The notes beneath the pieces were generated by a model, which ran no database searches, was not told where the DNA came from, and saw nothing but the letters and a program-made list of their open reading frames with translations. A DNA stretch of 3,483 bases from a virus (lineage: Duplodnaviria; Heunggongvirae; Uroviricota; Caudoviricetes): positions 1 through 3,483 of IMG/VR virus record IMGVR_UViG_2728369593_000026; one strand, written 5' to 3'. Shown here in pieces: positions 1-3,483 of the stretch. Both the position numbers and the translations under genes were made by a program. Position 1 is the first letter of the stretch. Each line of letters begins with the position of its first letter.

Positions 1-99
1 CCTCGTAGTGTTAAACGTTATGGTGAAATTAGTGGAAATGTAGGTACAGAAACCCGTCCACGAAATATTGCATTTAACTTTCTGGTGAGGGCTAAATAA
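1..99 (+). CDS. Tail-fibre protein, C-terminal end (5'-truncated by window edge); variable receptor-binding portion of the + orientation
   Basis: Frame 1 is open from the window edge to TAA at 97-99, translating ...PRSVKRYGEISGNVGTETRPRNIAFNFLVRAK*. It sits immediately upstream of a tfa gene, the usual stf-tfa arrangement. The homology is recalled, not searched. Confidence 0.55.
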   Translation, partial: PRSVKRYGEISGNVGTETRPRNIAFNFLVRAK

Positions 100-132
100 T
101 GAAACCTTTTTGATGAAAATGGGCTGGCTACA

Positions 133-690
133 GTGCCGGGCGATATGCGTTGTTTTTATTATAATGCAGTAACGTATGAATATACCGGCTGGTCTGATGA
201 ATATATTAATACTGGCGTAAGTATGCCCGCCTGTTCCACTGGTATTGACCCGAGCGAAAACATTCCGGGAAAAGTGGCAGTATTTACGGGTAAGGGATGG
301 AGCCATGAAGAAGACCATCGCAATGAGACCGTTTACTCAACTGAAAATGGCGCAGCTGTTACAGTGGATTATATCGGTGCCATCAAAGACGGTTATGTCA
401 CGCTTTCACCGTTAACGCCATACGATAAATGGGATGGTGAGAAATGGGTGACGGATACCGAGGCACAGCATAGCGCCGCAGTAGAAGCGGCAGAAGCACA
501 GCGCCAGTCGCTGATTGATGCTGCAATGGCTTCCATCAGTCTGATTCAACTGAAATTACAGGCCGGGCGGAAGCTGACGCAGCCAGAAAACACCCGACTT
601 AACGCTGTGCTGGATTATATTGACGCGGTGACGGCAACAGATACCAGCACAGCGCCGGACGTCATCTGGCATGAACTGCCGGAGGCGTAG
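133..690 (+). CDS. tfa: Tail-fibre assembly protein (Tfa/U family chaperone)
   Basis: 185-codon ORF ending TAG at 688-690. It aligns in my recollection with lambda Tfa (e.g. AVF..EEDHR..TVY and DKWDGEKWVTDTEA against lambda QKWNGTAWVKDTEA) and carries the C-terminal DTSTAPD motif. The start is uncertain: GTG at 133 or ATG at 145, both with weak Shine-Dalgarno sequences; in-frame stops at 97-102 exclude anything earlier. Confidence 0.85.
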   Translation: MPGDMRCFYYNAVTYEYTGWSDEYINTGVSMPACSTGIDPSENIPGKVAVFTGKGWSHEEDHRNETVYSTENGAAVTVDYIGAIKDGYVTLSPLTPYDKWDGEKWVTDTEAQHSAAVEAAEAQRQSLIDAAMASISLIQLKLQAGRKLTQPENTRLNAVLDYIDAVTATDTSTAPDVIWHELPEA

Positions 691-1105
691 GCCATTCAAT
701 ATCTGGCGCACCGGAAGTATCGACCAGCTCCAGTGCGTCCAGATAATCCAGCCACAAATTATATTGCGCCAGTTCCTCACCTTTCAGGCGACCAATCGCT
801 GCTTTACCAGGCCATTGCTTACTGTTTATGTATTCGTTGACCTGATTAATCAATTGCTGCTTTTCCAGCGCGGCTGCGGCAATTTGTTCCTCATGAGTTG
901 GCGGTGGAATTTCCCCCCAGGTGGGAAGGCCATCATCACCCGCGATGCGTACTTTCCCTTGCAACGTTCTGTCTTCAATAAATTCCATGTAAGTGTCATA
1001 TGTCACTTCGACAACATCAGCAAGTTCCCATCCGGCCTGTTCATATTTCGCCGCATCATTTTTAGCGAAAAAACTATTATTTGAGGCGCTATAAACCATT
1101 TCCAT
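662..1105 (-). CDS. Alternate tail-fibre assembly protein (Tfa'/U'-like) belonging to the opposite-orientation cassette
   Basis: 147-aa ORF with ATG at 1103-1105 (reverse strand) and stop at 662-664. Its C-terminus carries the same Tfa signature (LWLDYLDALELVDTSGAPDIEWP) as the + strand Tfa. It lies directly downstream of the minus-strand fibre cassette, with one nucleotide between that stop and this start. Confidence 0.8.
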   Translation of the reverse strand: MEMVYSASNNSFFAKNDAAKYEQAGWELADVVEVTYDTYMEFIEDRTLQGKVRIAGDDGLPTWGEIPPPTHEEQIAAAALEKQQLINQVNEYINSKQWPGKAAIGRLKGEELAQYNLWLDYLDALELVDTSGAPDIEWPTPPAVHAR

Positions 1106-1106
1106 A

Positions 1107-1505
1107 TTAATACCCTACTGCAATATAAAAAACTGATTCACCAGCGTCCTGAGCACCTGTCCCCGGAATTCCAGACCAGCCTTTGTTAATGAATGCAAAA
1201 CCGGTATTACTCAGATCAGATGCTCTGTACATCGGGCTGAATATCCAGTAGTTGGCTGCATATGTTTGTCCGAAAACAATGCCATAGCACTGATTTGTAA
1301 ATGGCGTAGAAAATAATTTTCCACCATTACCAGCGATAGCACCGAATCGCATCTGGAATCCATTAGGGAAATTAACGCCACCCGATGGGGAAGACCAGTA
1401 AGACATATCAGGTATCTGATTATCTCCTGTGCCCACATCCCTTTTCGCCGCTTCTCCTAAACCAACGTTTATGAAAATACAGAAATAACGAGCAAATGGC
1501 ATCAT
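1107..1505 (-). CDS. Alternate tail-fibre C-terminal (variable) cassette, Sv'-like; appears promoter-less and unfused in this orientation
   Basis: Minus-strand ORF ending TAA (reverse of 1107-1109), Gly/Asn/Ser-rich like phage fibre tips (…GTGDNQIPDMSYWSSPSGGVNFPNGF…). The reading frame runs through the crossover site at 1452-1477 and stops being meaningful beyond it; the ATG at 1505 is probably not a real start. This is the expected layout for a cassette that becomes fused to the constant fibre 5' part after inversion. Confidence 0.7.
   Translation of the reverse strand: MMPFARYFCIFINVGLGEAAKRDVGTGDNQIPDMSYWSSPSGGVNFPNGFQMRFGAIAGNGGKLFSTPFTNQCYGIVFGQTYAANYWIFSPMYRASDLSNTGFAFINKGWSGIPGTGAQDAGESVFYIAVGY
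1452..1477. other. Din-family invertase crossover site (pix/gix/hix-like), right boundary of the invertible segment
   Basis: TTCTCCTAAACC-AA-CGTTTATGAAAA: two 12-bp half-sites in inverted orientation (9 of 12 positions symmetric) around a 2-bp AA core. It fits the recalled consensus TTnTCnnAAACC-NN-GGTTTnnGAnAA and the hixL sequence TTCTTGAAAACCAAGGTTTTTGATAA. It lies 55 bp upstream of the invertase start and inside the minus-strand fibre reading frame, as gixR does in Mu. Confidence 0.75.
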
Positions 1506-1531
1506 TCCTGCTTTTGTCAGGGAGAGCTACC

Positions 1532-2086
1532 ATGCTTATTGGCTATGTACGTGTGTCAACAAATGACCAGAACACAGATCTACAACGTAATGCGCTGAAC
1601 TGTGCAGGATGCGAGCTGATTTTTGAAGACAAGATAAGCGGTACAAAGTCCGAAAGGCCGGGACTGAAAAAACTGCTCAGGACATTATCGGCAGGTGATA
1701 CGCTGGTGGTCTGGAAACTGGACCGACTGGGGCGCAGTATGCGGCATCTTGTCGTGCTGGTGGAGGAGTTGCGCGAACGAGGCATCAACTTTCGTAGTCT
1801 GACGGATTCAATTGATACCAGTACCCCAATGGGGCGCTTTTTCTTCCATGTGATGGGTGCCCTGGCTGAAATGGAGCGTGAACTGATTGTTGAACGAACA
1901 AAAGCTGGACTGGAAGCTGCTCGCGCACAGGGACGAATTGGCGGTCGCCGTCCCAAACTTTCACCAGAACAATGGGCACAGGCCGGACGATTAATTACAT
2001 CAGGAGTTCCTCGCCAGAAGGTGGCGATCATCTATGATGTTGGCGTATCGACTTTGTATAAGAAGTTTCCGGTCGGAGATAAATGA
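1532..2086 (+). CDS. pin: Serine site-specific DNA invertase, Pin/Gin/Cin/Hin (Din) family
   Basis: 184-aa ORF starting ATG at 1532, with GGGAGAG Shine-Dalgarno at 1520-1526. The N-terminus MLIGYVRVSTNDQNTDLQRNAL carries the catalytic Ser9 in the VRVSTNDQ motif; the resolvase-type catalytic domain (GDTLVVWKLDRLGRS) and C-terminal helix-turn-helix (VAIIYDVGVSTLYKK) follow. It is near-identical in my memory to E. coli PinE/PinR. The ORF-track start at 1496 is rejected as a spurious upstream extension. Confidence 0.95.
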   Translation: MLIGYVRVSTNDQNTDLQRNALNCAGCELIFEDKISGTKSERPGLKKLLRTLSAGDTLVVWKLDRLGRSMRHLVVLVEELRERGINFRSLTDSIDTSTPMGRFFFHVMGALAEMERELIVERTKAGLEAARAQGRIGGRRPKLSPEQWAQAGRLITSGVPRQKVAIIYDVGVSTLYKKFPVGDK

Positions 2087-2390
2087 AACCGCAGCACGTC
2101 GTATGCAAGAACGTGCCACGGCTGGCTGATGGACGTTCGATAGCGCGAGTTTGAATGAAAATCAGCCGGAGATGATTTTACATAATTGCTACGGAATTAT
2201 TCAATACAGGGATTGCTTGTGTCTGCATGGATTGACCTGAAATAGTCCCGAAAATTTCTCTAAAAAACTCGAAAAAAATGGTAACTAATTGAATGTATTA
2301 ATATGCAATGGTACGTGTTTGGGATTAAAAGATGAACGTAATTTTGTTTAACACATTAATTTTAAATGATTTTCTTGTTTGTTGACGAAA

Positions 2391-2416
2391 ACAGGAATCG
2401 TGTTCGGTCTCTTTTT
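2391..2416 (+). terminator. sdsR: Hairpin plus T-tract matching the 3' end and intrinsic terminator of sRNA SdsR (RyeB); probable attR core at the prophage-chromosome junction
   Basis: ACAGGAATCGTGTTCGGTCTCTTTTT is 25 of 26 identical to the SdsR 3' end as I recall it (…ACAGGAAUCGUAUUCGGUCUCUUUUU). It is a stem-loop followed by a T5 run on the + strand, immediately upstream of pphA, which matches the known pphA-sdsR synteny. The conserved 5' part of SdsR is absent upstream, where AT-rich DNA sits instead. Confidence 0.55.
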
Positions 2417-2550
2417 ATCTGTTAAAAGCCAGAAGCATTCCCTTCGCTGACTTTATAGTCAACCATAACACACACTCTACTGTCTGAGTCCAGCGTTTTT
2501 TAACATTCTTGTTAAGATTATGTGATCTTTAGCGCGGGAGGAAAATATTG

Positions 2551-3207
2551 ATGAAACAGCCTGCGCCCATTTATCAGAGAATTGCGGGTCATCAATGGCG
2601 ACATATCTGGCTTTCAGGCGATATACACGGTTGTCTTGAGCAATTGCGCCGCAAATTATGGCATTGTCGTTTTGATCCGTGGCGAGATTTACTTATCTCA
2701 GTGGGAGACGTTATCGATCGTGGGCCGCAAAGTTTACGTTGCCTGCAGTTACTGGAACAACATTGGGTTCGTGCGGTAAGAGGCAATCATGAACAGATGG
2801 CGATGGATGCGCTGGCATCCCGGCAGATGTCTTTATGGTTGATAAATGGCGGCGACTGGTTTATTGCGCTGGCAGATAATCAACAGAAACAAGCGAAAAC
2901 GGCGCTGGAAAAATGTCAGCATTTGCCCTTTATTCTTGAATTACACAGTCGCACCGGCAAACATGTTATTGCTCATGCCGATTATCCAGATGATGTCTAT
3001 GAATGGCAAAAGGACGTCGATTTGCATCAGGTCTTGTGGAGCCGCTCGCGATTAGGTGAACGCCAAAAAGGGCAGGGAATTGCAGGTGCTGATCATTTCT
3101 GGTTTGGTCATACACCTTTGCGCCATCGCGTGGATATTGGCAACCTGCATTATATTGATACCGGTGCTGTCTTTGGGGGAGAACTGACTCTTGTGCAATT
3201 GCAATAA
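2551..3207 (+). CDS. pphA: Serine/threonine protein phosphatase 1 (PrpA/PphA), calcineurin-like metallophosphoesterase
   Basis: 218-aa ORF starting ATG at 2551, with GGGAGG Shine-Dalgarno at 2535-2540. It carries the metallophosphatase motifs GDIHG, GDVIDRG and GNHE. The sequence MKQPAPIYQRIAGHQWRHIWLSGDIHGCLEQL… matches my recollection of E. coli PphA. The ORF-track start at 2548 is a TTG one codon upstream and is rejected in favour of the ATG. Confidence 0.92.
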   Translation: MKQPAPIYQRIAGHQWRHIWLSGDIHGCLEQLRRKLWHCRFDPWRDLLISVGDVIDRGPQSLRCLQLLEQHWVRAVRGNHEQMAMDALASRQMSLWLINGGDWFIALADNQQKQAKTALEKCQHLPFILELHSRTGKHVIAHADYPDDVYEWQKDVDLHQVLWSRSRLGERQKGQGIAGADHFWFGHTPLRHRVDIGNLHYIDTGAVFGGELTLVQLQ

Positions 3208-3399
3208 TTAAAAATCACCGTACTCCTGTGCAGGTCGCCAGAAACCATCTATAAAATCCTCAATCGGAAAACAACCGCCATGGCGGATCCGTTGATCGCT
3301 CATAGAATAAAGACACTGCTGTTCCGTGTTGTAGACATCCACAACAATATCTTCACAACCGCCATCCAGGTAGCAAACAAAAAGTACCAGCGCGAACAT
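3208..3399 (-). CDS. yebW: Small conserved hypothetical protein, 63 aa, consistent with YebW
   Basis: Minus-strand ORF with ATG at 3397-3399, preceded by GGGGA, and stop at 3208-3210: MFALVLFVCYLDGGCEDIVVDVYNTEQQCLYSMSDQRIRHGGCFPIEDFIDGFWRPAQEYGDF. Size and position next to pphA match what I recall for E. coli yebW. The frame stays open upstream to the window edge, so a longer form cannot be excluded. Confidence 0.55.
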   Translation of the reverse strand: MFALVLFVCYLDGGCEDIVVDVYNTEQQCLYSMSDQRIRHGGCFPIEDFIDGFWRPAQEYGDF

Positions 3400-3483
3400 T
3401 TCATCCCCGAAGTGTGGTGCCGTACCGTTAAGTTTAGGAGAGATTTTACAACGGGGGAATAACCCGGACAAATAACCCGCCAT

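Follow-up and report, generated by a model that had tools for sequence, protein, structure and literature searches.

The invertible P segment of prophage e14 of Escherichia coli K-12, with its crossover sites pixR and pixL, was reportedly described by Plasterk and van de Putte in 1985. Both sites have published sequences (Table 3 of PMC3241671): in e14, pixR (TTCTCCCAAACCAACGTTTATGAAAA) lies beside pinE, and its partner pixL (TTCTCCCAAACCAAGGTTTTCGAGAG) lies in the fibre gene on the opposite strand. Genome sequencing has documented that the P segment inverts (PMC4272514), and this inversion has been linked to phage defence via the fusion protein StfE2, for which receptor blocking has been reported (PMC12529663). 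The sites of the Din invertases (Hin, Gin, Cin and Pin) share a degenerate consensus, TTCNNNNAAACNNANGTTTNNNNRAA, which we took from PMC3241671. A central AA is common to hix, cix, pix and mix, and gix and bix have GA instead (Table 3, PMC3241671); the GA core of gix can also be read in the Mu sequence. In the best-described relative, the hin system, a recombinational enhancer of 65 bp lies about 100 bp from hixL (PMC3798978).

The DNA analysed here, called the window, is a stretch of 3,483 nucleotides. An earlier note on it had claimed a 26-bp crossover site at 1452-1477, and the 26-mer TTCTCCTAAACCAACGTTTATGAAAA is indeed found at these coordinates on the plus strand. It consists of an inner half-site, TTCTCCTAAACC (1452-1463), which is part of the invertible segment, a core dinucleotide AA (1464-1465), and an outer half-site, CGTTTATGAAAA (1466-1477), which is fixed beside the invertase gene pin. 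The half-site symmetry that the note had described is present, since TTCTCCTAAACC and the reverse complement of CGTTTATGAAAA (TTTTCATAAACG) agree at 9/12 positions around the AA. Its statement that a central AA is characteristic of hix, gix, cix and pix sites holds for hix, cix and pix, but not for gix with its GA core. Alignment with published sites, which the note had proposed as a check, gave 25/26 identity to pixR, both as read in the K-12 e14 genome and as listed in Table 3 of PMC3241671. The only change is C to T at site position 7 (window 1458). A T at this position occurs also in cix and in several mix sites (PMC3241671), and here it raises the dyad symmetry from 8/12 to 9/12.

The Din consensus has a single match in the window, namely 1452-1477, with 0 mismatches on the plus strand and 2 on the minus strand; the number expected by chance is 0.03 (200 shuffles). 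A species-level scan for the exact site returned 3 loci, all from Escherichia or Shigella, so that the exact sequence is narrowly distributed among species representatives. Judged by sequence comparison, 1452-1477 is very probably (probability roughly 0.93) the invertase-proximal, pixR-type site of a Pin/P-segment tail-fibre switch in a myovirus-type prophage beside pphA. In many E. coli genomes, the neighbouring invertase carries the RefSeq annotation pinE; the crossover site is unannotated.

The invertase gene itself, pin (1532-2086, plus strand), is intact and encodes a serine DNA invertase of 184 aa (Pfam Resolvase, 1.5e-51; HTH_7, 4.9e-14) with the conserved N-terminal motif GYVRVSTNDQ. 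The protein is 96.2% identical to e14 PinE, 85.9% to Fels-2 Fin, 82.6% to P1 Cin and 77.2% to Mu Gin. Between the site and the pin ATG lies a spacer of 54 nt (1478-1531, plus strand) with a Shine-Dalgarno-like GGAG at 1521-1524. Ungapped alignment of 95 nt upstream of the invertase genes showed that this length is kept without insertions or deletions in e14, Mu, Fels-2, SEN8 and Chris1. Within the 5' end of pin, 1550-1621 (plus strand) corresponds in position to nt 19-90 of P1 cin, where an enhancer is annotated, with 55/72 positions identical to P1 and 70/72 to e14. It contains two Fis-like G-N13-C 15-mers (1553-1567 and 1602-1616) that span 64 bp, the proximal one centred 95 bp from the crossover core. 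By analogy with P1 and hin, 1550-1621 is probably a Fis-dependent recombinational enhancer.

The spacer shows two further features. The block 1494-1505, read on the minus strand as ATGATGCCATTT, lies 27-38 nt upstream of the invertase ATG. It is largely conserved in e14, Fels-2, SEN8 and Chris1, with a shorter form in pro483 and Mu, and it provides the annotated start ATG of the "silent" cassette ORFs e14 stfE, SEN8_25 and pro483_34; on the plus strand it holds a -10-like CATCAT. In one related locus (L011, 4660-5969; CP148498.1), an IS3-family element has come to separate the pixR site from the start codon of pin. The insertion is equivalent to window 1501-1503, and that trinucleotide is present on both sides of the element. 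In this variant, any promoter overlapping the site would be cut off from pin by the element.

As the earlier note had proposed, the site is embedded in a minus-strand fibre reading frame: within the ORF 1107-1505 it reads (t)TTC ATA AAC GTT GGT TTA GGA GAA, that is, FINVGLGE. The silent alternative C-terminal fibre cassette (Sv'-like) runs from the crossover core to the stop codon (1107-1465, minus strand). The mechanically called ORF of 132 aa extends beyond it to an ATG at 1505 and has no constant N-terminal part. Next to the cassette is its paired tail-fibre assembly chaperone (662-1105, minus strand; Pfam Caudo_TAP, E = 3.3e-30). On the plus strand, the window begins with the end of the other fibre cassette (Sv; 1-99, the last 32 codons and the stop), which is joined to the constant part in the orientation of the window, followed by the chaperone of the currently expressed cassette (99-690; Caudo_TAP, E = 7.9e-26). 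In this orientation, the plus-strand cassette is the expressed one and the minus-strand cassette is silent.

Close relatives were gathered by exact-protein look-up, and two of them show both fusions of the fibre gene. L003 comes from a different assembly and has the element at the same chromosomal position, flipped. Its fibre of 231 aa consists of 113 constant residues ending in KTALENLGLGE and of AAKRDVGTGDNQ...AVGY up to the stop codon, which is the minus-strand cassette of the window. The junction reads ...TALENLGLGE/AAKRDVGTG..., and directly 3' of this fused gene, on the same strand, follows the chaperone found at 662-1105 in the window. The expectation that recombination would join the minus-strand cassette in frame to the constant fibre part is thus borne out by a natural recombinant junction without a frameshift. 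The second relative, L005, carries the other fusion, ...LGLGE/GAPAIGV...LVRAK and a stop codon; the translation of window 1-99, ...PRSVKRYGEISGNVGTETRPRNIAFNFLVRAK followed by the stop, is the C-terminus of this 289-aa fibre. Both fibres (...TALENLGLGEAAKRDVG... in L003 and ...TALENLGLGEGAPAIGV... in L005) are open to their stop codons. The core TT occupies codon positions 2-3 at both sites, in CTT (Leu) at the partner and in GTT (Val) at the window site on the minus strand; therefore, the constant N-terminal 113 residues join either cassette in frame.

The start of the cassettes has its own pattern of conservation. The first 50-70 nt inside the site (window 1400-1451) are 83-93% identical among cassettes that otherwise differ, and they encode AAKR(D/N)VGTG(D/E)NQIPDMS in the window and in L002 and L007-L014. 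The inner half-sites vary by cassette (TTCTCCC, TTCTCCT or TGCTCTT). This suggests that cassettes are exchanged between elements as modules.

Searches of the window with the site and with the Din consensus gave no second match and hence no partner. The partner is not visible because the source contig stops before reaching it: by homology to L005, it would lie about 421-446 nt beyond window position 1, with the predicted sequence CTCTCGAAAACCTTGGTTTGGGAGAA in the source genome. A missing inverted partner had been named as a result that would speak against the site. In the nearest relatives the partner is present; L005, which has the same orientation as the window and is 99.8% identical to window 2-1190, carries an inverted AA-core partner, TTCTCCCAAACC AA GGTTTTCGAGAG, on the opposite strand. 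The form TTCTCC(C/T)AAACC AA GGTTTTCGAGAG, again on the opposite strand, is found in L005, L003 and 10/11 other related loci that were fetched, one of which (L013) has a variant inner half. In the 11 loci that share this arrangement with L005, the distance between the two sites is about 1.8-1.9 kb, and the segment here measures about 1.9 kb. Since the partner and the constant fibre part lie outside the window and its contig, the activity of the switch in the source genome is deduced from these relatives. A multi-site, Min- or shufflon-like system was also considered; as only one consensus match exists in the portion of the segment that the window covers, it was rejected for that portion.

Comparison with L003 narrows down the place of the exchange. 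L003 matches window 1451-3483 on the plus strand (99.7%) and window 2-1470 on the minus strand (99.8%), and the two alignments overlap at 1451-1470, the inner part of the site. When L003 was inverted in silico between its central dinucleotides, it contained window 1401-1500 exactly; native L003 lacks that stretch. The position-7 variant serves as a marker: in the window the T is in the pin-proximal site, and in L003 it is in the distal site beside the same cassette, with C in the pin-proximal site. The outer halves are stationary, with CGTTTATGAAAA on the pin side and GGTTTTCGAGAG on the side of the constant fibre part, and they are invariant in every locus that carries them. Because the position-7 T travels with the cassette and the outer halves stay, the exchange maps to 1459-1465, the core AA included. 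The comparison of natural variants thus indicates that inversion occurs and that the exchange takes place around the central dinucleotide. This mapping to 7 bp is a tidy confirmation of textbook serine-invertase mechanics and adds nothing new.

Further genomes fit this picture. Six contigs that encode the 147-aa chaperone of the window include both orientations, and the presence of elements 99.7-99.8% identical in both orientations implies recent inversion. In megablast searches, matches to numerous other E. coli genomes have window 1451 as their first position, which is the edge of the swappable cassette; the site therefore accounts for the break in homology. A census of complete genomes found this cassette in 7 genomes, at about 90% identity and beside a recombinase gene, with 0 instances of the fused form. 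As the cassette is rare in complete genomes, the evidence on orientation comes from the draft assemblies L003-L006.

By analogy with Hin and Gin, a Pin dimer would bind the two imperfect 12-bp half-sites at 1452-1477, and a second dimer would occupy the inverted partner, which lies within the fibre gene at a distance of about 1.9 kb. Fis, bound to the enhancer near the start of pin, would unite both sites in an invertasome. All four strands would then be cut at the central AA/TT, leaving a stagger of 2 nt at each site. After one pair of subunits had turned by 180 degrees, the ends would be rejoined; the invertasome and subunit-rotation steps come from the Hin/Gin literature (PMC3798978). The natural variants show that the whole stretch between the two cores is inverted, namely the two cassette-plus-chaperone modules together with both inner half-sites.

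The window corresponds to L004 3623-7105, read as the reverse complement, and its position 1 is the end of contig AKYH01000074.1 (assembly GCA_001605745.1), which is of E. coli/Shigella type. The best match among complete E. coli genomes is 95.7% identical over 87% of the length, and the exact source is absent from that set. Homology to the K-12 chromosome (98.2%) begins only at window 2386, inside the sdsR/ryeA locus beside pphA (2551-3207), which is followed by yebW (3208-3483, minus strand). The DNA before about 2385 therefore belongs to the prophage, which is inserted in this bidirectional sRNA locus. Only about the last 31 nt of sdsR remain beside pphA (stretch 2087-2416), and an Rfam scan of the window for SdsR/RyeA or other RNAs gave zero matches. 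In relatives, the genes upstream belong to a myovirus-type baseplate module.

Several irregularities lie in the plus-strand chaperone gene or at contig ends. The plus-strand chaperone has a 2-nt deletion after codon 3 (99-133), ATGAAACCTTTTTGATG here versus ATGAAACCTGTTTTTGATG in L003 and L005 (99.8% identical); its frame meets a stop at 111-113 and reopens only from a GTG at 133. The prophage may be decaying, or the assembly may contain an error at this point, which is about 100 nt away from the end of the contig. The draft contigs L005 and L006 also end in or near the invertible segment. Such breaks may stem from mixed orientations in the sequenced culture or from repeated fibre sequences. 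L005 matches the window only up to 1190, and its positions 1-127 do not align with the cassette at window 1191-1317, which may indicate a different 5' part of the cassette or an artefact of the contig end.

The site could also have a second role, compatible with recombination, in which bound Pin occludes a weak promoter of its own gene, overlapping or bordering the site, and so regulates its own synthesis. The conserved distance of only 54 nt from the site to the pin ATG speaks for it: given this spacing, a promoter immediately in front of pin is bound to overlap or adjoin the site, unless it lies in DNA that inversion changes. A -10-like GAAAAT (1473-1478, with A2 and T6; GATAAT in Mu) spans the outer boundary of the site, and its last T, just outside the 26 bp, is conserved in 6/7 aligned elements. 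However, GAAAAT may be conserved merely as a recombinase half-site. The earlier failure to find convincing -35 and -10 hexamers in 1440-1531 was repeated, with no sigma-70 site of at least 9/12 on the plus strand. A position-wise promoter scan of 7 homologous upstream regions gave only weak candidates, the best at 7/12: TTCTCC-15-GAAAAT (1452-1478) and TACAGA-16-CATCAT (1478-1505), which suffer from poor -35 hexamers or a 15-nt spacer. Upstream of the seven invertase genes, three blocks are conserved, namely the site, ATGGCAT(C/G)AT (1497-1505) and GC.TTT. Among the papers that we searched, none documents a gin, pin or hin promoter overlapping a crossover site, including the overlap of the gin promoter with gixR that the earlier note gives for Mu. 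Autoregulation of pin via the site is plausible but unsupported, neither supported nor refuted by these data, and we consider it possible but rather unlikely. A broader idea, that the site and the 54-nt spacer do more than recombine, through pin repression, a free fibre-tip fragment or an orientation bias, appears improbable to us. Pin at 1452-1477 could repress a weak pin promoter via GAAAAT. Translation of the "silent" cassette from the conserved start in ATGATGCCATTT could yield a free fibre-tip fragment of 132 aa, which might have a host function such as receptor blocking, as reported for e14 StfE2. The position-7 T variant could bias the equilibrium between orientations.

Two other readings would deny the site an active role. 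In one, the difference in orientation arose by RecA recombination across a short inverted repeat, and the likeness to pix is only that of a conserved fibre peptide, NLGLGE. The two sites do share about 20 bp of inverted identity, and the shared stretch does encode a conserved peptide, but about 20 bp of homology is very short for efficient RecA recombination. Moreover, the pin-side outer half-site lies outside the expressed fibre frame and is nevertheless invariant in related prophage loci, the same outer half-site recurs in e14 and pro483, and the recombinase consensus is matched over all 26 bp, with a dedicated invertase and a probable enhancer alongside. We give this reading almost no credence. 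Less remote, and still very unlikely, is a site that is a true pix by descent in a switch that is now dead because the partner was lost, the prophage decayed or Pin is not expressed. The partner is indeed unseen, with a contig that ends inside the invertible segment; the plus-strand chaperone carries its 2-nt deletion, and the IS3-family element between site and pin in L011 shows that such loci do decay. Against this, Pin has its full length and 96% identity to PinE, neither the site nor the enhancer region is damaged, and the near-identical elements in both orientations point to recent inversion. In addition, a pix-flanked segment can be inverted in trans by other Pin paralogues that the cell contains (PMC12529663). 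We favor an active Pin/pix switch.

This is an ordinary, well-understood tail-fibre switch, and the wider significance of the result is small. The site may explain why the source contig ends inside the segment. Annotators should treat the 132-aa ORF (1107-1505) as the silent half of a fibre gene with two states, and not as a separate gene or a pseudogene.

The closest described system is the P segment of e14. The outer half-site and the AA core are identical to those of pixR, which leaves the single mismatch among 26 positions, and the spacer has the same length. The order of elements also agrees, with the constant fibre part followed by one cassette and its tfa, then by a second pair of tfa and cassette on the other strand, and finally by pixR and pin. 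The systems differ at position 7 (C in e14, T here), in their fibre cassettes, in the length of the segment (1,797 bp in e14 versus about 1.9 kb here) and in chromosomal location, as e14 is at icd and the prophage here is in the sdsR/ryeA-pphA region. Among P2-like phages, pro483 has an exact e14-type pixR beside its invertase and an inverted partner about 1.9 kb away in the fibre gene. In contrast to the prophage here, pro483, Fels-2 and SEN8 are complete P2-like phages with other fibre constant parts, and Fels-2 and SEN8 have a GA core.

The G segment of Mu resembles this locus in that the invertase lies just outside the right-hand site, with the same 54-nt spacer, the crossover falls inside the S fibre gene at the junction of constant and variable parts, and Gin is 77% identical to Pin here. 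In contrast, gix has a GA core, and its two copies share one 26-mer sequence, which differs from the window site at 8/26 positions. The C segment of P1 shares the AA core and the T at position 7 in the inner half-site of cix (TTCTCTTAAACC), and its annotated Fis enhancer within cin is collinear with window 1550-1621; however, cin lies on the other side and reads towards cixL, so that the site is just past the cin stop rather than upstream of its start. Salmonella Hin likewise uses a 26-bp AA-core site with 12-bp half-sites, and its Fis-bound enhancer about 100 bp from one site and its subunit rotation (PMC3798978) have probable counterparts here, but the hin segment carries a promoter and hin and switches flagellin transcription, whereas pix swaps fibre C-termini. 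The system described here is therefore of the known Pin/pix type, carried by a prophage related to e14 that occupies another place in the chromosome and has other fibre cassettes; as a type, it was already known.
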